A stretch of DNA of 64,000 nucleotides. Source: an uncultured Chloroflexia bacterium (GTDB lineage: Bacteria; Chloroflexota; Limnocylindria; Limnocylindrales; CSP1-4). Positions 10,559-61,299 of this stretch are shown one piece after another; position 1 is the first letter of the stretch; the number at the start of each line of letters is the position of its first letter. The position numbers and the translations under genes were made by a program. Location of the stretch: the NCBI GenBank assembly GCA_963720355.1, contig CAVRFH010000004.1, positions 723,361 to 787,360 on the forward strand. The letters run 5' to 3'. The notes beneath the pieces are model-generated. The model saw only the letters and a list, made by a program, of their open reading frames with translations. It had not been told where the DNA came from and did no database searches.

Positions 10559-10635
10559 TGGCGGACCCGACCGGATTCGAACCGGCGATCTCCAGCGTGA
10601 CAGGCTGGCATGTTGGGCCGCTACACCACGGGTCC
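10559..10635 (-). tRNA. tRNA-Asp (anticodon GTC)
   Basis: Folded by hand: acceptor GGACCCG/CGGGTCC, anticodon loop CTGTCAC, T-loop TTCGAAT, discriminator G and an encoded CCA. Confidence 0.9.
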
Positions 10636-19615: not shown

Positions 19616-19691
19616 GCGCCTGTAGCTCAGTGGATAGAGCGTCGGCCTCCGGAGCCGAAGGTCGCAGGTTCGAATCCTGTCGGGCGCGCCA
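19616..19691 (+). tRNA. tRNA-Arg (anticodon CCG)
   Basis: Folded by hand: acceptor GCGCCTG/CGGGCGC, D-arm GCTCAGTGGATAGAGC, anticodon stem-loop TCGGC-CTCCGGA-GCCGA, T-loop TTCGAAT, encoded CCA. Confidence 0.9.
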
Positions 19692-30482: not shown

Positions 30483-31694
30483 TCAGGCCGCCAGCCGCTC
30501 CGGCCGCGGCCAGGCGAGCGCGAGGTCGTCGATGACCAGCTCCGGGGCCACGTTGGTCGCGATGAGGACCGACGCCCGACCCAGCCGCTCGAGGAACGCA
30601 CCGACCTCGGCCACGCCGAGGCGAGCGGCGAGCCCACGCGTGTCGTCGAGCACGCCGATGTCGCGGATCGACCGCTCCAGGCCGCGCTGACAGAGCGCAA
30701 GATCGCGGGCCACGTCGGTCCACAGTGCGATCAGCGCCTCGGCGGCGCGCCGCCGCTCGGTGGCCGGTGCGCGGACCGGCCCGACGTCATCGCCGGCCTC
30801 GTCCCCGTCCGCCTCGGCAGCCGGTGGGGTACCGGCCGTCGGCCGCGCGCGACCCCGCTTCGATGGGGAGCCGGGAGGCGTCTCGGCCACCGACGGTGTC
30901 GCGGGCGCCGCGACGCTGAGGACCGACGCGAGCACGGTGGCCTGTGCGGCCAGCGAACGGACCCCGGACAGGCGGTCGGCCGGCCGCGCCTCGGCAAGGT
31001 CCATCAACGAGCGGGCGATGGAATCGCGCTCACGCAGGGCATCCGGCGATCGGGCCCAGGCCAGGGCGAGACCGGGCCGGCCGCCGGCGATCCGGGCCAG
31101 CCGGGCGGCCACTGGCGGCTCGGCGATGCCCTGCTCCTCGAGGAACGCCTCGATGTCGCGAACGCCGACGGGGCCCAGGTGCAGTCGCGCGCAGCGCGAC
31201 CGGATCGTCGGCAGCAGCGGCTCCTCGGCGTCGGCGCAGAGGATGATGGTGGTGGCCGACGGTGGCTCCTCGAGCGTCTTGAGCAGCGCCGTCTGGGCGT
31301 CCTCGTTCATCCGGTGCGCATCCTCGATGACCGCGACCCGCACCGCACCTTCGACGGGGAGCAGGGCAAGGTCGGCGATCAGGTCGCGGATGCCGCGGGC
31401 CTTGGCGCCGGGGCCGCCGATGATCACCTGGCGCCCAGGGCCCTCCGGCCCGAGCCGGTGCAGGTCGGGGTGGCCGGCGTGCGCGACGAGGCGGCATGAC
31501 CGACAGGTCCCGCACGGCCGCGCCGCAGCATCATCGGCCATGCACAGCAGGCCCGCGGCAAGGTCGAGCGCGAGGGTCGCCTTGCCGGAGCCGCCCGGCC
31601 CGACGATCAGGACGGCACCAGGCGACCCGCGACGGATCAGCGAGGCGACCGCAGCGAGCGCGGCGGGGTGGCCCCGCGTCCGTGCGCCGTCCAT
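30483..31694 (-). CDS. holB: DNA polymerase III subunit delta'
   Basis: LIVGPGGSGKATLA Walker A, the CGTCRSC zinc module and an SRC sensor motif, with the overall delta-prime layout. Confidence 0.8.
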   Translation of the reverse strand: MDGARTRGHPAALAAVASLIRRGSPGAVLIVGPGGSGKATLALDLAAGLLCMADDAAARPCGTCRSCRLVAHAGHPDLHRLGPEGPGRQVIIGGPGAKARGIRDLIADLALLPVEGAVRVAVIEDAHRMNEDAQTALLKTLEEPPSATTIILCADAEEPLLPTIRSRCARLHLGPVGVRDIEAFLEEQGIAEPPVAARLARIAGGRPGLALAWARSPDALRERDSIARSLMDLAEARPADRLSGVRSLAAQATVLASVLSVAAPATPSVAETPPGSPSKRGRARPTAGTPPAAEADGDEAGDDVGPVRAPATERRRAAEALIALWTDVARDLALCQRGLERSIRDIGVLDDTRGLAARLGVAEVGAFLERLGRASVLIATNVAPELVIDDLALAWPRPERLAA

Positions 31695-31704
31695 GACCCC
31701 TCGA

Positions 31705-33637
31705 TCAGGTCGCGGGGGTCGTCCGCCGGGGGGCCCGCCGCTTGGGCGCGGCCTCGGCCTGGGCGTCGCCCGACCCGTCGCTCGCGGCGGCCGGCTCGGT
31801 CGACGACGCGTCGGTCGCCGCCTTGCGGGTGGTCCGTCGCTTCGGCGCCGGCGCAGCGTCCGGCTCGTCGGTCGCCGCCGTGGCCGCCGTCCGCGTCGTG
31901 CGTCGCTTGGGCGCCGCCGCGGACGAGGCGGACCGCGAGGTCGTCGCGGTCGTCGCCTTGCCGGCGGTGGACGATCGCGTCGAGCGCCGCTTGGCGGGTG
32001 CCGCTGCGGTCACGTGGGCGTCGGCCGATCCGCCCGTGTCGGCGGTGACCGCCTGGGACGGCGGCGCCTCCGACTCCTCGCTCGCCCGGCCCGGGACCGT
32101 CTCGGTCGGTCGGGTCGGCGGAGCCTGGGTCACCTGCGCGCGCAGCATCGCCTCGAGTTCGGGCGGCACCTCGCTCCAGGGCTCGGCCGATCCCGTCGCT
32201 CGCGTCGCGTCGCGGGCTCGGGGCTCGCGGCTCTCGTATGGCCGGCTCTCCCGCGGCCCCCCACCGCCACCACCACCGCCGGCGCCGGTCCGGCCGCTGA
32301 CGTCGGGATATCGGTTGATCCCTCCGCTTCGACCGCGGCCGAAGCGCTCGCGCTCCATCGCCGACTGGTACGCGGCACGACCGCCACGCGGACCGCCGCC
32401 ACCGCGGGCCCCTTGCCCGCGACCGGTGCCGCCGCGCGCCCCGCGACGCTGTTCGGCGATGAGGTACTCGGGGATCTCGGGCTCCTCGAAGTCCTCGTCA
32501 TCGGCGAGCGGCATCAGGTTCGCCGCCGGTCCGACCGGCGTGCCGATCTGGGAATCCCAGACCGAGCCGAAGGGCGTGGTCCGTGGGGACCGCGGAGCCG
32601 GCAGCGGCTGCTCGTCCTCCTCGTCCTCGACGTCGATGTCGACATCGACGTCCTCGGCGGGGCTGCGATCGGGTGCGCCCGGATCGGGTGCGCCCGCGAC
32701 GGGCGCCTCGTCCCGGCCGCGACCACGACCACGACCACGACCACCTCGCCGGCGGCGCCGGCGTCCGGCATCGTCCCGGGACTCGTCGGCGTCGCGCTCG
32801 GCCGCGTCGGCCGCGTCGACACCGTCCACCGGCTCGGCGTCATCGAGCGTGAACACCTCGGCGGCGGCGAGATCCGCTTCGGACAGGCCGCCACCGCGCG
32901 CCTTGGACAGGCGCTCGCCGGGCATGGGGGTGACACCCTCGGCGTTGGATCCGTTCGTCGACGCGGTCGCGGGGCGACGCCCACGGCCCCGCGAGGATGT
33001 CGCCGCGACGGGCTCCGCCTCGGTGCTCCGTCCGCGACCTCGGCCGCGCGACGTGCGTCCGCCGCGCCCGACGCCGGTGCCCTCGGTCTGCTTGTCGGGG
33101 ACCTCGGTCATCGACAGGTCGGTGTCGCCGTCCGCCACCCGACGTCCCGAGCGCGAGCCCTTCTCGACGCGCGCCAGCTGGATGATGTCGGTGAACTGGT
33201 CGGCGACCTCGATGAGGTCAGAGCTCGTGTTGCCACGGAAGCTGATGACCTCGACACGGACACCCTGCTCCTGGACCGCCCGGATGGCCGGGTGCGAAAT
33301 CGCCGTCGCCGGAGACGACGATCGCGATGTCCAGGTTGCGGGCCGTCTTCATCATGTCGACGACGAGCTCGATGTCGAGGTTCGCCTTGACCTTGCCGTC
33401 GCCGTACTTGCGGATGTCCTTGCTGACGACCTTGTAGTTGCTCCGGCGCAGGAAGTCGTGGAAGTTGCGCTGGTTCTCGTTGTCCGGGTCGAGGCCCGTG
33501 TAGGCGTACGCCCGCACGAGATCCCGGCCGGCCGAGGCCGACTTCAGCAGCGTGACGTAGTCGATGTCCACGCCGGCCGCCTTGGCCGCGTAGAAGATGT
33601 TCGCCACGTCTACGAAGACGGCGACGTTCTTGCCCAA
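31705..33637 (-). CDS. NYN-domain (LabA/DUF88-like) predicted ribonuclease fused to a roughly 480-aa disordered RGG/Asp-Glu/KRR-rich tail; one frameshift near 33300
   Basis: The N-terminus (ORF 33218..33637, VAVFVDVANIFYAAK...DIAIVVSGDGDFAP) is in one frame and continues as AIRAVQEQGVRVEVISFRGNTSSDLIEVADQF in the frame of ORF 31705..33138. The tail holds RGRGRGRG runs, poly-Gly and repeated AAPKRRTTR motifs. Confidence 0.7.
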
Positions 33638-33704
33638 CTGATACTCCTTGGGTATGTGGTTGACGCCCGGCCGGCGCGATCGCGCTGCTCGGCGGGACGG
33701 TTGA

Positions 33705-34189
33705 TCAGGTGCGGCGCGCGGTGGTTCCCACAGCGGCCACGATTCGTTGGATGCGCGGGCCGGCCGGCGTGAAACCGCGGGCCGCCCAGCGGGCGAGGGC
33801 CGTCGGGTCGTCCGGACGGGCTGCCTCCACGAGGGTGCAGCCCTTGTTGCTCGCCGAGCGGACGACCTCCTCGAGGAGGGCGTCGGTCACACGGTCCGCG
33901 TCGTGGTCGGGGTCGACGACCAGGAGATCGATGGTGCCGACGAAGCCGCCGGCACGGACCGACGGACGAAGGGCCAGGACGGCCCCGCCCACGACGTGGC
34001 GCTGGCTCTCGGCGACGAAGATGCTGGCCTGCGGCAGGTAGACCAGCTGGCGCAGGAGATCTGCGGCATCGAGCGGGCTCGCGCCACGCCGTCGACGCGG
34101 AGATCCGGATCGCTCAGGGCGACGAGACGATCGATATCGGTGACACGGGCGGCTCGGACCAGGTATTCCACGCCGAAGGTTTCGCACCT
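33705..34189 (-). CDS. GNAT-family N-acetyltransferase with one frameshift near 34085
   Basis: The N-terminal half (VEYLVRAARVTDIDRLVALSD) and the C-terminal half (LVYLPQASIFVAESQRHVVGGAVL...GFVGTIDLLVVDPDHDADRVTDALLEEV) are in different frames. Confidence 0.55.
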
Positions 34190-34563
34190 CGAAAGGACGG
34201 CGACCGTCGGCCCCTCGACCGGGACAACCGACCCGTGGTCGGCACCGTCGGGCCTGCGATCCGGCCGCCGCGCGATGAGGACGCGGCGCGGATGCGGCCG
34301 ACCGGTATTGCATTCGGGTCGCCGGTGCCTATGATACGGCATCGTTTCGGCGGTCACCTGCGCGCCGCCCGAACACGGTCCTGCGTCGCCTCCGTCACGC
34401 ACCGCGCTCGCTCCGTCGACGCCCTGGGAGGGCACCGTCGAGGGACAGCGCGTGAGGGTGGACGGTGCGTCTTCGCATCTGCCGGATCGGGTAGGGCCGG
34501 GTGCCACCGAGCGACGGACGTCCGGGAGGTTCCGGGCGATCCTGGTACCCAGGAGGAGAATGC

Positions 34564-35794
34564 ATGAGAAAGACCAAGGTCGGGGCGCTTGCCGCCGTCG
34601 CGATGCTCGCCTTTGCGGCGTGCAGCGGCGGACGGCGGCGGGACAGCGAGCAAGGGCGAGATCGAGATCTGGTCCTCGCTGCCGCGCCAGGGTTCGAGCA
34701 AGGCCCAGACCGACACGATCGTCAACGCGATCAACATGGCCATCGAGGAGAAGGCCGGCGGCAAGGCCGGCGGTTACACGATCGTCTACAAGGACGTCGA
34801 CGACTCCACGGCCGCCGCCGGCAAGTGGGACGAGGCGACCGAGATCAAGAACGCCAACGACGCCGTCGCCAACGACAAGCTCGTGGCGTACATCGGCACG
34901 TTCAACTCGGGTGCTGCCAAGCTGTCGATCCCGATCCTCTGCGGTAAGGGCATCGTGATGATCAGCCCGGCCAACACGGGCGTCGGCCTGACCAAGCCCT
35001 TCGAAGAGGGCGAGCCGGACAAGTACTACCCGAACGGCTGCAAGAAGAACTACACGCGCGTCATCCCGGACGACGACCTCCAGGGCGAACGCTGGCGCGA
35101 AGTGGGCGTCCCAGCTCGAGCGCAAGAACGTCTACATCCTCGACGACACCGAGGTCTACGGCAAGGGCATCGCCGACGTCTTCGATTCGAGGGCTGCGGA
35201 GTATGGCCTGACCGTCCTCGGCCGCGATGGCATCGACGGCAAGGCGTCCGACTACAAGGCCCTGGCCGAGAAGATCAAGGCCACCAACCCCGACCTCGTC
35301 TACTACGGCGGGATCACCCAGAACAACGCCGGCCAGCTGTGGCGCGACCTGCGCGACGCGATGCCGGACGTCAAGCTCATGGGTCCCGACGGCATCTACG
35401 AGGGCGAGTTCCTCGAGGCTGCCGCGGCAGCCGCGGAAGGCAGCTACATCACCTTCGGTGGCGTGCCGCCGGACCAGCTGACCGGCAAGGGCGCGGAGTT
35501 CGTCGACAAGTACACGGCGAAGTACCCGAACAACCCGATCGAGGGCTACACGGCCTACGGCTACGAGGCGGCGCAAGGTCGTCCTCGCGGCCATCGAGCG
35601 GGCTGCTGCCAAGAACCCGGCCGACGTCGCGGCGCTCCGAGCCCTCGTCCTCGACGAGGTCAAGGCGACGAAGGACTACGACGGCGTGCTCGGCACGTGG
35701 AGCTTCGACGCCGACGGTGACACCAGCCGCGACGACGATGTCCGGTCTGATCATCACCGGCGGCGAGTTCAAGTTCGACACCGTCATCGAGTAG
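34564..35794 (+). pseudogene. livK: Branched-chain amino-acid ABC transporter substrate-binding lipoprotein (LivK/LivJ-like) with four frameshifts
   Basis: AGGAGGAG ribosome-binding site, then MRKTKVGALAAVAMLAFAACSGG; the protein can be followed through four frame changes near 34630, 35095, 35578 and 35740 and ends ...GEFKFDTVIE stop. Confidence 0.75.
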
Positions 35795-35893
35795 CTCCCT
35801 CCTTCGGAGAGGAACAACGGCCGGCCGCTCGGCAGCGCGTCGAGCGGCCGGCCACCATCCACTGACCTCCGGCACTACCGTGAGGAGAGGGCG

Positions 35894-36829
35894 TTGGAGG
35901 AGCTGGTCAAGGCGCTGACGATCGGCCTGACGAACGGCTTGGTCATCGCGCTGATCGCGATCGGGTACACCCTCGTCTACGGCATCCTCGAACTCATCAA
36001 CTTCGCCCACGCCGACGTGTTCATGCTCGGCACGGCATTCACCTTCTTCGCCACCGAGCTCATCGTCGGCGCCCTGGGCATCCCGGCGATCGGCGCTCCT
36101 CGCGCTGCTCCTCACGTTCATGGCGCTGCCGATCGTCATGCTACTGACCGCGGGGATCAATGCCGGCATCGAACGCGTGGCCTATCGGCCCCTGCGCAAC
36201 GCCCCGCAGATCTGGCCCCGCTGATCAGCGCGATCGGGATGTCCTTCGTGCTGCAGAACATCGGCCTCGTCCTGCTCGGTCCGTCACAGAAGGCGGTCGA
36301 GCCCGTGCTTCCGCGGACCGATCTCGTCACCTTTCCGAGCGGCGCGTCGTGGTTCGGGGTCGACGAGCGTCGATGGTCCTCTCGGTCACGATCCCGCTCC
36401 TGCTCGCCCTGCGCTGGTTCGTCGGCAGGACGCGGCAGGGCAAGGCGATGCGGGCCACCGCCCAGGATCGCGAGGCGTCCGGCCTGATGGGCATCGACGT
36501 CAACCGGACGATCTCGCTGACCTTCCTCATCGCCGGCGCGCTGGCCGGTGCGGCCGGGCTGGTCGTCGCCCTGTACTACGGCCAGACGTTCTTCCAGTTC
36601 GGCTTCCAGTTCGGCCTGCTGTCATTCACGGCCGCGGTCATCGGCGGGATCGGCAACCTGACCGGGGCCACGCTCGGCGGGATCGTCATCGGCCTGATCG
36701 CCGCGATGTCGGACCGGTTCCTCGAGGCGAAGTGGACACAGCGTCATCGTCTTCTCGCTCCTGATCCTCGTCCTGGTCTTCCGGCCCGACCGGGCTCCTG
36801 GCCGAGAAGGCAGTCGGAGCGTGCCTGAC

Positions 36830-36833
<4 letters not shown>
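35894..36833 (+). pseudogene. livH: Branched-chain amino-acid ABC permease LivH with about four frameshifts
   Basis: MEELVKALTIGLTNGLVIALIAIGYTLVYG, then LivH-like pieces in alternating frames, ending ...VLVFRPDGLLAEKAVGACLT stop, which overlaps the livM ATG. Confidence 0.7.
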
Positions 36834-38214
<1,381 letters not shown>

Positions 38215-38218
<4 letters not shown>

Positions 38219-39040
38219 CGGCCGACGCCGGCCGTCGCAGCCCGAGACGGGCGGCGACCTGCTCGTCGCCAAGGGCTGCACGAAGCGGTTCGGCGGGCTG
38301 GTCGCGGTCAGCAACATCGACTTCACGATCCCGCGCGGCGTCGATCGTGAGCCTCATCGGTCCCAACGGCGCCGGCAAGACGACGTTCTTCAACATGATC
38401 ACCGGCCTGTACGTCCCGACCGAGGGCTCGATCGTGTTCGACGGCACGGAGCATCACCGGCCGCAAGCCGCACGAGGTCGTCCGTCTCGGGATCGCCCGG
38501 ACGTTCCAGAACATCCGCCTGTTCGGCAACATGACGGCCGAGGAGAACGTGCTCGTCGGCCTGCACCACCGGCTCAAGGGCCGCTGGTTCGGCGCCGATC
38601 CTGCGGCCGCCGTCGATCCGGCGCGAGGAGGAGGAGGCGCACGACCGAGGCGCATGGAGCTGCTCGAGCTGGTCGGGCCTCGAAGCGGCGCTCGCCAGAC
38701 CCTCGCCCGCAACCTGCCGTACGGCGACCAGCGGCGCCTGGAGATCGCCCGCGCGCTGGCCACGGACCCGAAGCTGCTGCTGCTCGACGAGCCGACCGCC
38801 GGCATGAACCCCGAGGAGACCCGCCGGCTGACCGACTTCGTCCGCGAGCTGCGCGACGCGACTCGGCCTGACCGTCCTCCTGATCGAGCACGACATGAAG
38901 GTGGTCATGGGCATCAGCGACCGCGTCACCGTCCTCGACCACGGCGAGAAGATCGCCGAGGGCACGCCGGCCGAGGTGCGCGCCGACCGCGGGTCATCGA
39001 GGCCTATCTCGGGCCGCGGCGCGGCTGGGGCGGGCTGACC
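38215..39040 (+). pseudogene. livG: Branched-chain amino-acid ABC ATPase LivG with multiple frameshifts
   Basis: FGGLVAVSNIDFTIPRG, SLIGPNGAGKTTFFNMITG (Walker A), LLLLDEPTAGMNPEE and [19 protein letters not shown] are found in three frames; ends are approximate. Confidence 0.7.
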
Positions 39041-39041
39041 G

Positions 39042-39757
39042 ATGGCGCTGCTCGAGCTGCGCGACGTCCACACCTACTACGGCAACATCCACGCCCTGAA
39101 GGGCATCTCGCTGACGGTCGACAGGGCGAGATCGTCACGCTCATCGGCTCCAACGGCGCCGGCAAGTCGACGACCCTCAAGACGATCAGCGGGCTGCTCC
39201 GCCCGCGCCAGGGCGAGATCCACTTCGAGGGCGAGCGGCTCGACGGGCATCCCGCCCCACGATGATCGTGGCGAAGGGCATCTGCCAGTCGCCCGAGGGG
39301 CGCCGCATCTTCCCGCGCATGACGGTCCGCGAGAACCTCGAGATGGGCGCCTTCCAGCGGACCAAGGGCGCCGACCTCGACGCCGACTTCGAGCGCGTCT
39401 TCACGCTCTTCCCGCGGCTCAAGGAGCGCGCTCCGCCAGAACGGCGGGACGCTGTCCGGCGGCGAGCAGCAGATGCTGGCGATCGGGCGCGCCCTGATGG
39501 CCCGGCCCGAAGCTGCTGCTGCTCGACGAGCCGTCGATGGGTCTCGCGCCGATCCTGGTCGAGCAGATCTTCGACATCATCAAGGACATCAACGCGGCCG
39601 GCACGACCGTGCTGCTGGTCGAGCAGAACGCGCTCATGGCGCTCGGCATCGCCGCGCGCGGCTACATCCTCCAGACCGGCGAGATCGTGCTCCAGGACTC
39701 GGCCGAACGACTGATCGTCGAACCCCGAGGTCCAGAAGGCCTACCTGGGCGGCTTGA
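39042..39757 (+). pseudogene. livF: Branched-chain amino-acid ABC ATPase LivF with about five frameshifts
   Basis: MALLELRDVHTYYGNIHALKGISLTVD, LIGSNGAGKSTTLKTISG, LSGGEQQMLAIGRALMA and ILVEQIFDIIKDINAAGTTVLLVEQNA are in different frames; the stop is lost to a 1-nt insertion near 39753. Confidence 0.7.
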
Positions 39758-54405: not shown

Positions 54406-54852
54406 ATGGCGAATCCTCGAACGGCACGGGGGGCGACCGCAGCCGCGGCGCCGCCGGCGCCGACCTCGACACCCGGGCCTGAGCCGGTGGCCTCGCCGCG
54501 ACCGGAGCGCGACCCGGAGCGACCCGTCTACGTTATCAGCGTGGCGGCGAGCATCGTCAGCGTCCATCCGCGCACGTTGCGGATCTACGAGGACGAGGGG
54601 CTCCTCTGCCCCGCGCGGACGCCCACCAATATCCGCCTGTACAGCGAGAACGACATCCGTCGGATCCTCTGGATCCGGCACCTCACCCGGGAGCTCGGGG
54701 TGAACCTCGCCGGCATCCGGATCCTCTTCGAACTCGAGGAGCGCCTCGGCGCACGGATCCTCGAGGCCCTCTATGCAGAAGGCACGGGCGATGCGTCGGC
54801 CATGCGGCCGACCGAACCGGTGCTCCGCGATCGATCGACGGCCGACCGATGA
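54406..54852 (+). CDS. hspR: MerR-family heat-shock repressor HspR-like
   Basis: VYVISVAASIVSVHPRTLRIYEDEGLLCPARTPTNIRLYSENDIRRILWIRHLTRELGVNLAGIRILFELEERL is a MerR HTH of the HspR type; a Pro/Ala-rich N-terminus, so the true start may be later. Confidence 0.7.
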   Translation: MANPRTARGATAAAAPPAPTSTPGPEPVASPRPERDPERPVYVISVAASIVSVHPRTLRIYEDEGLLCPARTPTNIRLYSENDIRRILWIRHLTRELGVNLAGIRILFELEERLGARILEALYAEGTGDASAMRPTEPVLRDRSTADR

Positions 54853-54929
54853 CCGACCGACCGTCCAGACCCACGTCAGCGAGGCGCCGCCGCGCCGACA
54901 TCGACACCGCACGTCAGGAGAAGCCACCG

Positions 54930-57428
54930 ATGGCAAAGCGACCGTCCAACCCGGTCGACGACACGCAGCAGAACGGGACCGCGACGGGACCCCGCGACCT
55001 GCCCCTCGTCGCACTCCGGGAGACGGTCATCTTCCCGGAGATGATCGTCCCGCTCCAGGTGGGCCGCGAGAAGAGCGTCAACGCGCTCAACGCCGCGGTC
55101 GCCGAAGGCGGACCCATCGCACTCGTCACCCAGCGTCAGGCCGAGCAGGAGGACATCAACGATCCTGCCGAGCTCTACACGATCGGCACGCTGGCCAAGA
55201 TCGCCCAGGTCGTCCAGCTCCAGGACGGCACCGTCCGTGCCATCGTCCAAGGCCAGTCGCGACTGCGCCTGCGGGCGTTCAGCCAGGCAGAACCGTATCT
55301 CCGGGCGTCCATCGAAGAGCTGCCCGACGAGACGCCGGACGGTCTCGAGGTCGAGGCGCTCATGCGCACGGTCCAGGCCCAGATCGAGCAGTACGTCGCC
55401 AACGGTGCGCCCGTGCCGCCGGAGGCGGCCGTCGCCGCGCGCAACATCAGCGAGCCCGGGCTGCTCGCCGACATGGTCGCGTACAGCCCCGACATGACCA
55501 CCGAGCAGCGCCAGGAGCTGCTCGAGACGATCGACGTCGTGGAGCGCCTCAAGCTCGTCTCGAACTTCCTGGCCCACCAGGTCGAGATCCTCGAGCTGAA
55601 GGGGCGCATCCAGTCCGAGGTCAAGTCCGAGATGGACAAGACCCAGCGCGAGTACATCCTCCGCGAGCAACTCAAGGCGATCCAGCGTGAGCTCGGCGAG
55701 GACGATCCGCAGCAGGCCGAGATCAACGAGCTGCGCGAGAAGGTCGAAGCGGCGGGCATGCCCGACGAGATCAAGGCACGGGCGATCAAGGAAGTCGACC
55801 GGATGAGCCGGATCCCGTCCGCCTCGCCCGAGGTCGGCGTCATCCGGACGTACGTGGACTGGCTGATCAGCCTGCCGTGGAACGTCGCGACGGATGACCA
55901 GCTCGACATCAAGGAAGCCGCGCGCATCCTCGACGAGGACCACTACGGGCTCGAGAAGATCAAGGAGCGCATCCTCGAGTACCTCGCGGTGCGCACGCTG
56001 GCGGACGAGATCCGCAGCCCGATCCTCGCCTTCGTCGGACCCCCCGGCGTGGGCAAGACCAGCCTGGGCAAGAGCATCGCCCGGGCGATGGGCCGCAAGT
56101 TCGTCCGGATGAGCCTCGGCGGCATCCACGACGAGGCCGAGATCCGCGGTCACCGGCGCACGTACATCGGCGCCCTGCCCGGCCGCATCATCCAGAGCAT
56201 CAAGACGGCCGGGTCGAACAACCCGGTGTTCATGCTCGACGAGGTCGACAAGATCGGGATGGACTTCCGGGGCGACCCGTCGTCCGCCCTGCTCGAGGTG
56301 CTCGACCCGGAGCAGAACAACAGCTTCCAGGACAACTACCTGGAGGTGCCGTTCGACCTGAGCAAGGCGCTGTTCATCGCGACGGCCAACCTGCTCGACC
56401 CGATCCCGGCCGCGCTGCGCGACCGGATGGAGATCGTCCAGCTGCCCGGCTATACCGAGACCGAGAAGATCGAGATCGGCAAGCGCTTCCTCATCCCCAA
56501 GCAGATGACGAACCACGGCCTCACGCCCAAGACGATCGAGATCACCGATGGGGCGATGACCGAGCTCGTGCGCTCGTACACGCACGAGGCCGGCGTCCGG
56601 AACCTCGAACGCGAGATCGCCAACGTCATGCGCAAGGTCGCCCGGCAGGTCGCCGAGGGCCGCAAGCGCAAGACCGTCGTCGACGAGAAGAAGCTGGCCG
56701 AGTTCCTCGGGCCGCAGCGCTTCGAATACGGCGAGCTCGAGGCGGAGGACCAGATCGGCTCCGCGACGGGCCTGGTGGTGACCGAGGTCGGTGGCGACGT
56801 CGTCGCCATCGAGGTGACCCGCATGGAGGGCAAGGAGGACTTCATCCTCACGGGCCAGCTGGGCGAGGTCATGCGCGAGAGCGCCCGTGCCGGTCTGTCC
56901 TGGACGCGAGCGCACGCCCGCGACCTGGGCGTCAATCGCGAGATCTTCGAGCGCAACACGCTGCACATCCACGTCCCGGCGGGAGCCATCCCCAAGGACG
57001 GGCCGTCGGCCGGGATCACGATGGCCACGGCCATCGTCAGCGCGCTCTCGGGCATCCCCGTCCGCAAGGATGTGGCGATGACCGGCGAGATCACGCTCCG
57101 TGGCCGCGTGCTGCCGATCGGCGGGCTCAAGAGCAAGATCCTGGCCGCGCACCTGTCGGGTGCCAAGACCGTGATCATCCCCAGGAAGAACGAGAAGGAC
57201 CTGCGCGATATCCCCGACGAGATCCGCAAGTCCATGAAGCTCATCCTGGTCGACACCATGGAGCAGGTCCTCGAGGCGGCCCTCCGGCGCAAGCCGAAGC
57301 CCCTCGAGGCCGAGCCCCCGAAGGTCCTCAAGGGCGGTGACCCACTCGACCCCGAGCCCGAGGCCCGGGTCCGACGGACCAACTTCCCACCTTCGGATCA
57401 GCCCCCGGTCGTCGTCGAGAGGCACTGA
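54930..57428 (+). CDS. lon: ATP-dependent Lon protease (endopeptidase La)
   Basis: LON N-domain, AAA+ module ([24 protein letters not shown]) and protease domain ([19 protein letters not shown], catalytic Ser); start placed at ATG 54930. Confidence 0.9.
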
Positions 57429-57479: not shown

Positions 57480-58538
57480 ATGGAGTACCGCGACTATTAC
57501 GCCGTCCTTGGGGTTCCGAGGACCGCGTCACAGGCCGACATCAAGAAGGCGTTCCGGAAGCTCGCCCGGAAGCATCACCCTGACACCAACACGGGCGATG
57601 CCGAGGCCGAGCGGAAGTTCAAGGCCGTCAACGAGGCGAACGCCGTGTTGTCGGATCCGGACAAGCGCACGCTCTATGACCGACTGGGCAAGGATTGGGA
57701 GGCCTACGCCCGTGCCGGCGCGACCGCCGGTTCGGCGGCGGGCCGTGCAGGCGGGCCCGCCGCTGGCGGGCCGTCCGGTGGGTACGCCGGCTTCGGCGGG
57801 CCGGGCGGCGGTGTCCGGTACGAGTTCCGCACGGCCGGCGACGCCGGCGACTTCAGCGACTTCTTCCAGGCGTTCTTCGGCGGGGCATCGGAGCCCCTCG
57901 CCGGTACCGACCGCGGTCGTCGGCCCACCGGCGGCCCCACGTTCGAGGAGATTCTCGCCGGTATGGGCATCGACGCCGACGGCCGGCCGGCCGGGACGAC
58001 CCGGCAGACCAGCGCACCGGCCCGCCGCCCATCGGCGGAGGCGATCGCCGACATCACCCTCGACGAGGCGTACCACGGCACGAGCCGGCTGATCGACATC
58101 GAGGGCAAGCGCCTCGAGGTGACGATCCCCAAGGGCGCCGACACCGGGACGCGCATCCGCCTGACGGGCAAGGCGCCGGGCGGCGGCGACCTCTTCGTCG
58201 TCGTCCGCCAGGAGCCGCATCCCGTCTTCACCCGGCGCGGCGCCGATCTCGAGCGGGAGCTGCCCCTGACCCTCCGCGAGGCGCTGCTCGGCGGCGACGT
58301 CCACGTGCGAACCCCGAAGGGTCGCGTGCTGCTGACCGTCCCGGCCGGGACCCAGACGGGCCGGACCTTCCGGCTCACCGGCCAGGGCATGCCCCGCTTC
58401 AAGACCGACGGCCACGGCGACCTGTACGCCAAGGCCAAGGTCATCATCCCGACCGATCTCTCCGCGGAGGCCCGCGCCGCCGCGGACGAGCTGTTCCGGC
58501 TGGTCGACCAGCCCGATCCCCGAGCACGAGAGACCTGA
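57480..58538 (+). CDS. J-domain co-chaperone lacking the CxxCxGxG zinc finger (CbpA/DnaJ-like)
   Basis: J domain with HPD ([30 protein letters not shown]), a Gly-rich linker and DnaJ C-terminal beta domains; no Cys-rich zinc module. Confidence 0.8.
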
Positions 58539-58542
58539 ACCG

Positions 58543-61299
58543 ATGCAACTCGACCAATTCACCCAGAAGGCCCAGGAGGCCATCGTCGCCGCCCAGCAGA
58601 CCGCCCAGCGGCTGGAATCGCCGATCCTCGACGCCGAGCACCTGCTCAGCGCCCTCATCGAGCCCGACGACGGGATCCCGGCCGAGACGCTGCGACGCCT
58701 CGGGGTCGACCTCCCCGGGTTCCGCGGCGAGCTCGCGGCCGCGCTGTCGCGTCGTGCCCGGATCACGGGCGGCTCGCTCACGCTCGACCCGCGCGCCAAG
58801 GGCGTGTTCGATCGCGCCGAGGCCGAGGCGCGCCGGCTCGGCGACGAGTACGTCTCGACCGAGCACCTGCTGCTCGGGACCGCCGATGCCGGGGGCGATG
58901 CGCAGACCCTGCTCGAGGAGCACGCAGCCGGCAAGGAGGCCATCCTCCAGGCCCTCCAGAGCGTGCGTGGTGGACAGCGCGTCACGTCGCCCAACCCGGA
59001 AGGGACGTACGCCGCGCTCGAGAAGTACGGCCGCGACCTCACGACCGAGGCCCGCGCGGGCAAGCTCGATCCGGTGGTCGGCCGCGACGAGGAGATCCGG
59101 CGCGTCATCCAGGTGTTGTCGCGCCGCACGAAGAACAACCCGGTCCTCATCGGCGAGCCCGGCGTCGGCAAGACGGCGATCGCCGAGGGTCTCGCGCAGC
59201 GCATCGTGCGGGGCGACGTCCCGGAGGGCCTCAAGGGCAAGCGCGTCGTCGCACTGGACCTCGGAGCGCTGATCGCCGGCGCCAAGTTCCGTGGCGAGTT
59301 CGAGGAGCGGCTCAAGGCCGTGCTCAAGGAGATCAAGGACAGCGACGGCCAGGTCGTCCTGTTCATCGACGAGCTCCACACCGTCGTCGGGGCCGGCGCC
59401 GCAGAGGGCGCCATGGACGCGTCCAACCTGCTCAAGCCGATGCTCGCCCGCGGCGAGCTGCACACGATCGGGGCGACCACGCTCGACGAATACCGCAAGT
59501 ACATCGAGAAGGATGCCGCGCTCGAGCGTCGCTTCCAGCCGGTCCTCGTCGACCAGCCGTCGGTCGAGGAGACGATCAGCATCCTGCGCGGCCTGCGCGA
59601 GCGGTACGAGGTCCATCACGGCGTCCGGATCACCAATTCCGCCCTCGTCGCCGCGGCGACGCTCTCCGATCGCTACATCAGCGACCGGTTCCTGCCCGAC
59701 AAGGCGATCGATCTCGTCGACGAGGCGGCATCCCGGCTACGCATGGAGATCGACTCGATGCCGATCGAGATCGACGAGCTCGAGCGCCGCCGGATCCAGC
59801 TCGAGATCGAGCGCGAGGCGCTGCGCAAGGAGACCGACGAGGCGTCGAAGACCCGGCTCGAGGCCCTTGAGAAGGAGCTCGCCGACCTCGAGGAGGAGGT
59901 CGGCGGCCTGAAGCAGCGCTGGGAGGCCGAGACGTCGGCGATCGCCGCGACCCGGGCGACGCGTACCGAGCTCGAGGCGCTCGCGACGCGCATCGAGCAG
60001 GCCGAGCGCGAAGCCGACTTCGCGACGGCGGCCGAGCTGAAGTACGGGACCCAGAAGACGCTCCAGGACACGCTCGCCGAGCAGGAAGCCGCGCTCGCGG
60101 CGCTGCAGGGCCCCGGCACCCTCCTGAAGGAGGAGGTCGGCGCGGACGACATCGCGGAGATCGTCGGCGCCTGGACCGGGATCCCCGTCAGCCGCCTGAT
60201 GGAAGGCGAGACGGCGAAGCTGATCCGCATGGAGGAGCGGCTCCATGACCGCGTCGTCGGCCAGGACGAGGCCATCCAGGCCGTGTCCGACGCCGTCCGC
60301 CGGGCACGGGCCGGGCTGAAGGACCCGGGTCGCCCGATCGGCTCGTTCCTGTTCCTCGGCCCGACCGGGGTCGGCAAGACGGAGCTCGCTCGTGCGCTCG
60401 CGGAGTTCCTGTTCGACGACGAGAGCGCGATGGTCCGGATCGACATGAGCGAGTACATGGAGAAGTTCGCCGTGTCGCGCCTGCTCGGGGCGCCCCCGGG
60501 CTATGTCGGCTACGAGGAGGGCGGCCAGCTGACCGAGGCGGTCCGTCGCCGGCCATACCAGGTCGTCCTGCTCGACGAGATCGAGAAGGCCCACCCGGAC
60601 GTGTTCAACGTGCTGCTCCAGGTCCTCGACGACGGCCGCCTGACCGACGGGCAGGGCCGGACCGTCGACTTCAAGAACAGCGTCGTGATCATGACCAGCA
60701 ACATCGGCTCCGCTGCGATCGCGGCGACCGGCGCTCGCGCCGGTGACGCCGCCTACGAGGCGATGAAGCGCGACGTCACCGAGGCGCTCCGATCGCAGTT
60801 CCGTCCCGAGTTCCTGAACCGTGTCGACGAGGTCATCGTGTTCCACGCGCTGACCGATGCCGACCTGGCCGCGATCGTCGATCTCCTGCTCGCCGACCTC
60901 GATCGGCGCTTGGCGAGCCAGGACATCCAGCTCGAGCTGACGGCATCCGCGAAGGCGCTCATCGTGCGCGAGGGTACGGACCCCGCGTACGGGGCGCGAC
61001 CGCTCAAGCGGACGATCCAGCGCCTCGTCGAGAACCAGCTGGCGCGTGCCCTGGTCGCCGGCGAGTTCCGGCCCGGCGACACCGTCACGGCCGACGCCGA
61101 CCTGGGGTCGGGCACGCTGATCTTCTCGACCGAGGGGGCGACCGTCGTCGCCGAGGGCGGTCGGCGGGACGCTCGTTCGACGCCGGCCGGGGATGCCACG
61201 GTCGGGGCCGGCGCCGGCGGCCGGCGCGGTCGTTCCGGATCGCCCCTGGATCTCCCGGCGACGCGCCCCGAGCGCGACGACGGCGAGCTCGTCAACTAG
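58543..61299 (+). CDS. clpB: ATP-dependent chaperone ClpB
   Basis: Clp_N; NBD1 ([17 protein letters not shown]); a long coiled-coil middle domain; NBD2 ([18 protein letters not shown]); 918 aa, intact. Confidence 0.9.

Follow-up and report, generated by a model that had tools for sequence, protein, structure and literature searches.

Bacterial NYN proteins of the LabA/COG1432 type number in the thousands. To our knowledge, VPA0982 of Vibrio parahaemolyticus (structure 2QIP) is the only solved member of the NYN.COG1432/LabA-like cluster; it is a single-domain protein of 165 aa with unknown function. The bacterial group as a whole is listed as being of unknown function (PMC5499597; PMC11127020). 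LabA/LalA of Synechococcus elongatus and Slr0755, Slr1870 and Slr0650 of Synechocystis, of the same Pfam family and COG as the protein considered here, are known from circadian-output genetics or ribosome co-purification, and their action on RNA is presumed (PMC11127020; PMC12232666). By description these cyanobacterial proteins are short or carry an OST-HTH domain.

Catalysis is better documented in other NYN proteins. In the mammalian ribonuclease MARF1 four aspartates are essential, N181 and S270 are conserved, and activity requires a separate RNA-binding module, which is built from folded domains of the RRM and LOTUS types (PMC6217404). A CRISPR-associated NYN protein of Bacteroides fragilis, prokaryotic and 2QIP-like, is a proven Mn2+-dependent, non-specific single-stranded RNA endonuclease (PMC11346440); it is a stand-alone domain in a type III CRISPR locus. 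Rae1/YacP of Bacillus subtilis is a housekeeping endoribonuclease of the NYN clade (PMC11127020; PMC11346440). It belongs, however, to a different Pfam family (PF05991), depends on the ribosome, has helical C-terminal extensions and is encoded in another operon. On its own, an NYN domain is a poor RNA binder. The default organisers of RNA decay are RNase E/G, Y or J; the scaffold of RNase E is C-terminal in E. coli and Caulobacter, and both N- and C-terminal in mycobacteria.

The locus described here encodes a nuclease domain of this known kind joined to a tail of an architecture that has not been described. By 'the window' we mean the whole 64-kb stretch of DNA that was analysed. The gene and its parts first needed are as follows.

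31705..33637, minus strand: the whole NYN-plus-tail gene, 643 codons once one apparently spurious C is removed; stop codon TGA at 31707..31705
33290..33292, minus strand: frame break through one extra base, the CC of relatives being CCC here
33184..33628, minus strand: NYN (LabA/COG1432-type, PIN-like) nuclease domain, residues 4-151, found by Pfam, the match to 2QIP, AF2 and Foldseek
33635..33649, minus strand: ribosome-binding site AAGGAG (33649..33644), 6 nt upstream of a TTG start (33637..33635)

As given, the sequence holds two minus-strand ORFs, 33637..33218 (139 aa, TTG start) and 33138..31705 (477 aa). The shorter one departs from the homologous frame past ...SGDGDFAP, and the continuation AIRAVQEQGVRVEVISFRGNTSS... 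is found in the frame of the longer one. Removal of one C from GCACCCGGCC (CCC = 33292..33290) yields a single ORF of 643 aa, so the two ORFs are parts of one gene, as the first-pass annotation had assumed, and not separate unrelated ORFs. Full-length homologues of 600-680 aa show 62-71% identity over 94-100% of the repaired query. Since the repaired protein aligns with them colinearly, the gene carries exactly one frame break. Both GC3 (0.88) and conservation at the protein level (67 aligned relatives) support the reading frame; ORF length is uninformative as evidence at 78% GC, and an 876-aa ORF on the opposite strand (30760..33390) was dismissed as a high-GC artefact.

That the N-terminus has a NYN fold had been suggested from the letters alone, and an HMM search now bears it out. 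Residues 4-151 match positions 1-144 of the 145-position PF01936 model (E-value 3.2e-37); the score of 128.7 bits compares with a cut-off of 24.2. The nearest structure by sequence is 2QIP (E 3.9e-18 over the same residues). An AF2 model of residues 1-193, built from a diverse alignment, had pLDDT >90 for residues 1-155; Foldseek matched it best to 2QIP (rmsd 2.2 A at a target-normalised TM-score of 0.85, E 2.5e-15), with the NYN domain of MARF1 in second place (E ~4e-7). The predicted fold is an alpha/beta/alpha sandwich with a parallel sheet; like 2QIP, it has no helical insert following strand 2. The motifs VDxxN, DhxhxxD and SGDGDF are common to the two proteins, which are 32% identical; VPA0982, by contrast, has neither a tail nor a link to holB.

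The predicted catalytic residues are D10, D50, D88 and D111, together with N13 and S109; they occupy the same secondary-structure positions as D178, D215, D246, D272, N181 and S270 of MARF1, to which sequence identity is 13-15%. None of the six varies among 63 family members, and their conservation in the diverse alignment is at least 90%. Among relatives the domain is 88-99% identical versus 45-70% for holB; judged by identity, constraint on the NYN domain exceeds that on an essential protein of replication. No other domain, including OST-HTH/LOTUS and RRM, was found in a Pfam search at E-value below 0.01. Nor did Pfam report a match to PF05991 (NYN_YacP/Rae1), and the residues after D10 are VAN rather than the GYN of that family.

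The tail of ~490 residues is the part for which the described NYN proteins offer no parallel: the B. fragilis protein is without tail or housekeeping context, an RGG/KRR polyampholyte tail is not described for the cyanobacterial proteins, and in MARF1 and Rae1 the appended parts are folded or helical, not disordered. Residues ~176-643 consist of 56% A/G/P/T/S, ~31% charged and 10% hydrophobic residues. The first-pass annotation called the tail low complexity, with RGG, acidic and KRR segments. Those segments are all there, as an (RG)n run, a poly-G run, the acidic patch DVDVDIDVEDEEDE and four (A/P)KRR repeats, but strongly conserved islands (0.80-0.95 column identity amid stretches of 0.28-0.54) make it more than simply low complexity. 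The conserved elements and the basic repeats are listed from the N-terminal side.

33037..33183, minus strand: family-specific conserved extension, residues 152-200 (QLARVEKGSRSGRRVA..DLSMTEVPDKQTEGT..GRGRG), 86% mean column identity, predicted to be disordered
32902..32931, minus strand: conserved short motif TPMPGERLSK, residues 236-245, 0.82 mean column identity
32713..32763, minus strand: invariant arginine-rich motif RRRRRRGGRGRGRGRGR, residues 292-308, present in 67/67 relatives
32545..32598, minus strand: conserved short motif APRSPRTTPFGSVWDSQI, residues 347-364, 0.81 mean column identity
32443..32505, minus strand: conserved acidic motif ADDEDFEEPEIPEYLIAEQRR, residues 378-398, 0.85 mean column identity, AF2 short helix at 390-398
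32290..32391, minus strand: conserved motif PRGGRAAYQSAMERERFGRGRSGGINRYPDVSGR, residues 416-449, 0.80 mean column identity, AF2 helix at 421-432
32128..32187, minus strand: conserved motif AEPWSEVPPELEAMLRAQVT, residues 484-503, 0.85 mean column identity, AF2 helix at 492-502
31717..31998, minus strand: C-terminal basic repeats, residues 547-640, four (A/P)KRR(T/S)TR copies within sequence rich in A/T/S/P

In the extension, AF2 gave pLDDT <50 for residues 160-193; the string DLSMTEVPDK was found in 66 of 67 relatives. The invariant motif RRRRRRGG(RG)4R sits between acidic blocks whose sequence varies while their charge is conserved, with a mean net charge of -11 over the 40 residues before it and -9 over the ~45 residues after it. 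Across the family, K+R (15.7%) and D+E (15.1%) are balanced, and the layout of charge blocks is kept even where sequence diverges; the (A/P)KRR repeats range from 0 to 4 copies among relatives. By composition, then, the tail has the length, the arginine-rich segments and the alternating charge blocks of a disordered scaffold. Full-length AF2, which used 63 close homologues, reached a mean pLDDT of 44 and modelled even the NYN domain poorly, because that alignment was almost without diversity; the assignment of disorder therefore rests mainly on composition, and the three tail helices, of which 492-502 is the most confident (pLDDT ~75), are a weak hint. High-GC genomes readily yield linkers rich in A/G/P/R, and some of the tail could be neutral filler of this sort. 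An internal acidic motif, ...DFEEPEIPEY..., was considered as a mimic of the C-terminal tip of SSB (DDDIPF) and set aside, the motif not being terminal.

A resemblance of the tail to the scaffold of actinobacterial RNase E had also been proposed. It holds weakly: the sole NCBIfam match of the whole tail is to mycobacterial RNase E (E 3.7e-5, model positions 127-203), in the segment of the arginine motif, but that segment is compositionally biased and the score is 18.8-21.7 bits (21.7 at best) against a cut-off of 1400. When three tail segments were searched separately against NCBIfam (E up to 10), the motif-rich middle and the KRR segment had no match. The matched model positions fall in the N-terminal scaffold of the mycobacterial enzyme (PMC10641625).

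The neighbouring genes needed here are two.

30483..31694, minus strand: holB, DNA polymerase III delta' (PF13177 E 1.4e-37, TIGR00678 E 4.6e-50)
33705..34313, minus strand: upstream gene of a GNAT-family acetyltransferase, with a frame error near 34090 and only the last ~130 codons matching relatives

We collected 315 relatives confirmed by tblastn and kept 80 loci; the order GNAT-NYN-holB-acylphosphatase is conserved in all 80, in keeping with the earlier description of a gene directly upstream of holB in a conserved neighbourhood. The kept loci come from MAGs of Chloroflexota/Limnocylindria, save two records labelled Thermomicrobiales and Methylomirabilota. These relatives place the gene in Chloroflexota, class Limnocylindria, and not in Actinomycetota, where the first-pass annotation had put it. 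Limnocylindria is an abundant uncultured class of soil and freshwater. The NYN gene is in every Limnocylindria locus recovered, and a related sister clade has the same layout with different motifs. The start of holB lies 10 nt past the NYN stop (5-15 nt in most relatives), with GAGGGG ahead of its ATG; the two genes are therefore probably co-transcribed and translationally coupled. A scan of 29.5-34.7 kb for terminators found none, and a promoter scan of the same region gave one weak promoter-like site, inside the NYN gene, by a method uninformative for this phylum.

Upstream of the gene the leader is conserved as well. The AGGAG of the ribosome-binding site is invariant among 53 relatives, and 76 complete relative ORFs start with GTG (63), TTG (10) or ATG (3). 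Such weak starts hint at low abundance, but genomes of high GC often use start codons other than ATG, and the choice may carry no meaning. A further element lies between the stop codon of the GNAT gene and the ribosome-binding site.

33664..33700, minus strand: conserved GC-rich leader hairpin with covariation across relatives

Its apical part, CCG-A-GC-A/U-GCG-N3-6-CGC-GC-CGG, is invariant and its basal stem covaries. RNAalifold on the raw MAFFT alignment of leaders returned no structure because the leaders were misaligned; the hairpin was revealed by re-anchoring on the CGCGCCG core, folding each leader individually and then counting pairs. In this count 83% of cells were paired, as against 35-43% in slid controls, and double changes were seen in 38 cells versus 18.8 +/- 3.2 in shuffles, none of 500 shuffles reaching 38. 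A strict pattern of the core occurs exactly once per locus in the 39 matching fetched loci, and once in the 64-kb window where 0.03 copies are expected. Rfam, run on the whole window and on the leader, reported two tRNAs only and left the hairpin unmatched.

On balance we favour the view that the protein is a divalent-metal-dependent endoribonuclease acting on single-stranded RNA, that its tail serves to bind RNA and to dock partners, and that it is made from a housekeeping operon, perhaps under control of its leader; we consider this somewhat better than an even proposition. That RNA is the substrate, that the tail has these two roles and that the gene is autoregulated are things we infer. 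The catalytic metal would sit among D10, D50, D88 and D111, with N13 and S109 assisting. The disordered tail would bind RNA with its invariant arginine motif, its remaining RG stretches and the KRR repeats at its C-terminus; MARF1 is alike in that its NYN domain needs an appended RNA-binding region. The acidic blocks could fold back onto the arginine motif, and this might be autoinhibitory or multivalent. Partner proteins may dock at the five to six conserved short motifs, three of which are predicted to be short helices. Expression would come from the GNAT-NYN-holB-acylphosphatase operon with a weak start codon, and the leader hairpin may control the gene's own mRNA, e.g. via self-cleavage or self-binding.

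The strongest of the other explanations goes further and makes the protein the central scaffold of RNA decay, with a polyampholyte tail that phase-separates with RNA and recruits enzymes as the C-terminal region of RNase E does in BR-bodies. In outline the two are alike, each being an endonuclease with a long disordered extension that has arginine-rich segments (RNA-binding in RNase E, presumably so here), blocks of alternating charge and conserved short motifs. The near-zero net charge of the tail is kept family-wide, several motifs are of the docking-site type, the local similarity to the mycobacterial scaffold falls in the tail, and the sister clade retains the layout with other motifs. The extreme conservation, in every recovered Limnocylindria locus, is what one would expect of a hub. 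Yet the catalytic domain is unrelated to that of RNase E, the protein has neither an S1 nor an RNase E/G domain (PF10150), and the similarity is compositional. Low abundance, as hinted at by the GTG/TTG starts, would be unusual in a scaffold, and our literature search found no paper tying NYN proteins to bacterial condensates. A search of the literature on the distribution of RNase E/Y/J in Chloroflexi returned nothing relevant. We regard a role as organiser as rather unlikely.

A DNA-directed function tied to replication, in which a PIN/FEN-like nuclease acts on flaps, primers or R-loops, or is bound to the nucleoid, with the tail holding DNA and the gene co-expressed with that of delta', is suggested by the short gap to holB in most relatives. 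Basic A/P/K/R repeats occur in DNA-binding tails, and the (A/P)KRR repeats recall them. The linkage to holB looks lineage-specific, however, and possibly incidental, because the nearest relatives beyond the class (58% identity) are not adjacent to holB, and the operon also holds the unrelated GNAT and acylphosphatase genes. The PIN-like superfamily does include DNA flap nucleases of the FEN type, but the NYN fold is without the FEN helical arch (PMC5499597), and the assayed members of the NYN clade, MARF1 and the B. fragilis protein, cut RNA (PMC6217404; PMC11346440). Action on DNA thus appears quite improbable.

It is also conceivable that the NYN fold serves for binding only and that the protein is a non-catalytic regulator or RNA-binding adaptor, a LabA-like modulator of gene expression. 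LabA itself is known from genetics alone, as a modulator of KaiC/RpaA output (PMC5499597; PMC11127020), and the LabA/NYN proteins of Synechocystis co-purify with ribosomes and with Rbp3 (PMC12232666). The strict invariance of the catalytic acidic residues in the family is hard to explain without catalysis, which makes this reading very unlikely.

The frame break could in principle be real, the locus being a true pseudogene from which only a truncated NYN fragment of 139 aa and/or a separate tail protein is made. The extra C is, after all, present in the sequence as given, and the CCC run is short. Still, the gene appears otherwise undamaged: the N-domain is 96% identical, the tail is colinear throughout and the ribosome-binding site is still there. 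Instead of relaxed constraint we see a single indel in a gene otherwise perfectly conserved. At the site of the break the relatives read GC[GAC]CC[GC]GC..., without the extra base (12 of 12 relatives aligned there), and the N-domain was a single unbroken tblastn match in 80 of 80 related loci. Moreover, at least 10 more frame breaks are scattered across 33.3-39.7 kb, the 6.4 kb upstream of the NYN gene, in conserved genes whose intact relatives are 79-94% identical; three of them are in one gene for an ABC substrate-binding protein. The extra C is therefore most likely an assembly or sequencing indel, and the gene, which the first-pass annotation took to be interrupted by a frameshift near 33300, is most likely intact in its Limnocylindria chromosome. 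Programmed frameshifting was ruled out, because the extra base is in no relative. We consider a pseudogene highly improbable; as a practical warning, this frame break and the many others in the window are best read as assembly errors and not as biology.

An anti-phage defence nuclease of the PADLOC 'NYN' type is extremely unlikely: the match to PDLC01154 ('LabA-like protein, NYN family nuclease', E 2.6e-23) is confined to the domain (positions 149-293 of the 310 in the model) and not over the full length, and the gene lies not in a variable island but in a housekeeping neighbourhood fixed in 80 loci, the rest of the 64-kb window being ordinary chromosome (Lon, a ClpB-type ATPase, transporters).

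For the favoured reading, an endoribonuclease with an RNA-binding and docking tail, the leader hairpin is a candidate natural substrate, and the motifs and charge layout of the tail, which can be mutated one by one, offer a handle on LabA/COG1432 function. One could speculate more boldly that in Limnocylindria RNA processing or decay is organised around this NYN endonuclease, instead of or beside RNase E/Y/J, with the tail as an RNase-E-like scaffold that holds RNA by the invariant arginine motif, brings in partners by its five to six short motifs and condenses with RNA, and the level of the protein self-set through the leader hairpin. We think this unlikely. If the tail is a scaffold, the RNase E design of an endonuclease plus a disordered hub arose independently on another fold. 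If the bolder proposal is true as a whole, a degradosome hub would have evolved convergently around another catalytic fold, and the role of the protein would be the first housekeeping function assigned in the bacterial LabA/COG1432 group.

The NYN gene lies on the minus strand (33637..31705) and appears in the assembly as two ORFs.

33637..33218, minus strand: ORF 1, 139 aa, TTG start, with AAGGAG 6 nt upstream
33138..31705, minus strand: ORF 2, 477 aa

Three-frame translation gave MGKNVAVFVDVAN...SGDGDFAP in ORF 1 followed by nonsense, with the true continuation, AIRAVQEQGVRVEVISFRGNTSS..., in the frame of ORF 2. Deletion of one C of GCACCCGGCC (CCC at 33292..33290) yields one 643-codon gene. 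Because the repaired protein is colinear with full-length homologues across 94-100% of its length, we conclude that the two ORFs form a single gene with a single frame break, as the first-pass annotation had proposed.

At 78% GC long ORFs arise by chance, thus the frame needed other support; it came from codon composition (GC3 0.88 versus GC2 0.61) and from conservation of the protein among 67 relatives. We rejected as a high-GC artefact an 876-aa plus-strand ORF (30760-33390) antisense to holB and the NYN gene, whose likeness to relatives mirrors conservation of the sense strand. Over the NYN domain (33200-33650) GC is 62-63% against 75-80% in the surroundings. As synteny and GC3 are native (in the domain GC2 is 0.35 and GC3 0.95), the dip reflects a globular composition rich in K/N/D/I/F/Y rather than foreign origin. 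GTG or TTG starts, seen in 73 of 76 complete relatives, may be mere high-GC usage.

A frameshift near 33300 had been reported; the break is present in the assembly, but comparison with relatives characterizes it as an indel artefact. At this position none of 12 aligned relatives has the extra base (they read GC[GAC]CC[GC]GC), and the N-domain was one unbroken tblastn match in 80/80 loci. When proteins of related loci were aligned to the window and frame changes counted on the true coding strands, at least 10 breaks were found in ~6.4 kb (~33290-39700), including the following.

~33291, minus strand: NYN gene
~34090: GNAT acetyltransferase gene
35087, 35577 and 35733: one ABC substrate-binding-protein gene, in four segments 83-92% identical to relatives
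~36370: frame break
38340, 38450 and 38856: frame breaks
~39435: frame break

Assembly errors are indicated because these neighbouring genes are so well conserved and yet so often broken. The same clustering of breaks, together with the intact relatives, makes a real pseudogene in this genome very improbable. Frameshift or pseudogene calls anywhere in the window need caution, as the assembly is indel-prone. Eight other loci (L013, L024, L049, L067, L070, L074, L078 and L080), mostly from long-read MAGs, have a tail ORF that is cut short or continues into holB, which looks like similar indel errors in the GC-rich tail; a 1095-aa protein, P0196, is an NYN-holB read-through.

A homology search produced 2355 matches; the best 120 were mostly 600-680 aa, and those named among them were Candidatus Limnocylindrales or Chloroflexota. 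Scanning one genome per species, we confirmed 315 relatives and kept 80 loci, all from Chloroflexota/Limnocylindria MAGs bar a few evidently mislabelled bins; the window is thus from Limnocylindria, and the Actinomycetota setting assumed earlier is not borne out. The order GNAT acetyltransferase-NYN-holB-acylphosphatase was observed in essentially every one of the 80 loci, so the earlier placement of the gene directly upstream of holB in a conserved neighbourhood holds. The NYN stop and the holB start are 5-15 nt apart in most relatives and 10 nt apart in the window, with GAGGGG ahead of the holB ATG.

Identity of relatives to the window proteins
NYN domain: 88-99%
holB: 45-70%
tail: 37-65%

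By these identities the NYN domain is constrained more tightly than an essential clamp-loader subunit, which is notable. The holB product (30483-31694, minus strand) carries at about residues 250-300 an internal low-complexity insert rich in A/P/G/E/D (..PATPSVAETPPGSPSKRGRARPTAGTPPAAEADGDEAGDD..), so such linkers may be common in the Limnocylindria proteome represented here. The window's only Rfam matches at gathering score were two tRNA genes (10562-10635, minus strand; 19616-19688, plus strand). Further along the plus strand are genes for a Lon protease (54483-57425) and a ClpB/ClpC-type AAA+ chaperone (58336-61296), each with ~160-170 N-terminal residues before the first Pfam domain; no RNase genes were seen near them, in an ordinary chromosomal context.

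The proposed NYN fold of the N-terminus was confirmed at profile level: PF01936 aligns to residues 4-151 (E 3.2e-37; 128.7 bits, cut-off 24.2). Among solved structures, 2QIP (VPA0982, function unknown) is closest in sequence (E 3.9e-18). An AlphaFold2 model built from a diverse alignment has pLDDT above 90 over residues 1-155, and in Foldseek its top-ranked neighbour was 2QIP (E 2.5e-15, rmsd 2.2 A, target-normalised TM-score 0.85), with the NYN domain of MARF1 next (E ~4e-7). MARF1 has been proven to cleave ssRNA in a Mg2+/Mn2+-dependent manner; it requires D178, D215, D246 and D272, and its N181 and S270 are conserved (PMC6217404). Equivalents were assigned by secondary-structure position.

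D10 and N13: end of strand 1
D50: end of strand 2
D88: start of helix 88-101
S109 and D111: after strand 4

Among 63 family members these six residues are invariant, and their conservation in the diverse alignment is 90% or more. A 2QIP-like NYN protein encoded in a CRISPR locus of Bacteroides is a Mn2+-dependent ssRNA endonuclease (PMC11346440). Given the fold, the conserved MARF1-equivalent residues and this prokaryotic precedent, prediction of an active metal-dependent nuclease is well founded; by analogy its substrate is probably RNA.

The tail had been described as low complexity, and its composition agrees (A/G/P/T/S 56%, hydrophobic 10%; K+R 67 versus D+E 69 in the window protein, 15.7% and 15.1% family-wide), as do the acidic patch, the KRR repeats and predicted disorder. 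The description misses conserved islands that alternate with variable stretches.

Conservation along the tail (mean column identity)
residues 152-200: family-specific extension, 0.86
residues 236-245: TPMPGERLSK, 0.82
residues 291-308: RRRRRRGGRGRGRGRGR, arginine motif, 0.95
residues 347-364: APRSPRTTPFGSVWDSQI, 0.81
residues 378-398: DDEDFEEPEIPEYLIAEQRR, 0.85
residues 416-449: PRGGRAAYQSAMERERFGRGRSGGINRYPDVSGR, 0.80
residues 484-503: AEPWSEVPPELEAMLRAQV, 0.85
variable stretches between islands: 0.28-0.54

The arginine motif is identical to the letter in 67/67 sequences and always flanked by acidic blocks (mean net charge -11 on the N-terminal side and -9 on the C-terminal side) whose own sequence is not conserved; the DVDVDIDVEDEEDE patch noticed earlier is one of them. 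The (A/P)KRR(T/S)TR repeats vary from 0 to 4 copies among relatives, and no other copies of the tail motifs were found within the 64-kb window. The full-length AF2 model is poor (mean pLDDT 44), with only three short helices predicted in the tail, each within a conserved island, the best at 492-502 (pLDDT ~75); in the N-terminal model, extension 156-193 is predicted disordered though conserved. Overall, the tail is predicted to be disordered, mainly from its composition, yet it is not featureless.

The suggested likeness to actinobacterial RNase E scaffolds holds only weakly. Among 18 950 NCBIfam models compared with tail segments, the sole match was mycobacterial RNase E, positions 127-203 (E 3.7e-5), within its described N-terminal scaffold domain (PMC10641625). 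As the score is small and composition-biased, we regard this as resemblance, not homology.

An exhaustive search of residues 1-193 against 1.84 billion cluster representatives gave 5458 matches (169 below 1e-30) in three tiers. The window protein's family has N-domain identity of at least 78%, with unfused members up to ~720 aa. A sister group (62-72%, 390-530 aa), whose two organism-named members are both Limnocylindria or Chloroflexota, shares the layout of R-run, acidic and KRR segments, retaining RRRRRRRGGRGRG, acidic blocks and PKRRARSTTKA-type repeats; its short motifs differ (EIGWEELDD, EREYTFEEAD..LAELG), it carries GIWQRFRSAR at the C-terminus, and it is also found near holB and an acylphosphatase gene. 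Its members include P0186 at locus L084, P0191-P0194 and P0198; at L084 the NYN and holB genes are separated by a YtxH-family gene called on the opposite strand. The third tier comprises ordinary LabA-like proteins (40-58%, 190-370 aa), many with 70-180-residue low-complexity C-terminal tails of other compositions; holB adjacency was absent in both members examined (n=2). From tails across the tiers, a disordered C-terminus seems typical of this NYN subgroup as a whole, and the very long motif-bearing form with holB linkage is, on these comparisons, specific to Limnocylindria.

Between the GNAT stop and the NYN ribosome-binding site we observed a GC-rich hairpin (33700..33664, minus strand). 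Relatives each fold to the same shape (-18 to -28 kcal/mol per 44 nt), with an invariant apex, CCG-A-GC-A/U-GCG-loop-CGC-GC-CGG, and a basal stem that varies with compensation: 83% of cells are paired versus 35-43% with the partner slid, and double-change cells number 38 versus 18.8 +/- 3.2 in shuffles, none of 500 of which reached the observed count. Each of the 39 fetched loci that match the strict core has a single copy of it, as does the 64-kb window (0.03 expected there); a related hairpin, with a CGCGCCGG core, is present in the sister clade. There is no U-tract, and leader and window searches gave no Rfam match to it. The hairpin is a candidate element for regulation in cis or for processing; by analogy with the autoregulatory rne and rnc leaders, one could hypothesize that it is an autoregulatory target.

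The best-supported reading is that the gene encodes a predicted metal-dependent endonuclease of ssRNA with a housekeeping role; its disordered tail would bind RNA and serve as a docking site for partners. A hub that resembles a degradosome or forms condensates, consistent with the charge layout, motifs and extreme conservation, is possible, though doubtful. Coupling to holB could point to a DNA or replication role, which we consider unlikely, and a non-catalytic regulator is more improbable still. An anti-phage defence nuclease, suggested by a domain-level PADLOC match, is contradicted by genomic context and can practically be set aside.

The NYN domain itself is a textbook family, labelled 'NYN domain-containing' or 'LabA/DUF88' in databases, and the bacterial COG1432 group is still of unknown function (PMC5499597; PMC11127020; PMC12232666). 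In the literature we found no description of the tail architecture, its conserved motifs or the leader hairpin. The predicted housekeeping endonuclease is not yet surprising; it should appeal to RNA-decay specialists, and recombinant protein would make the reading testable.
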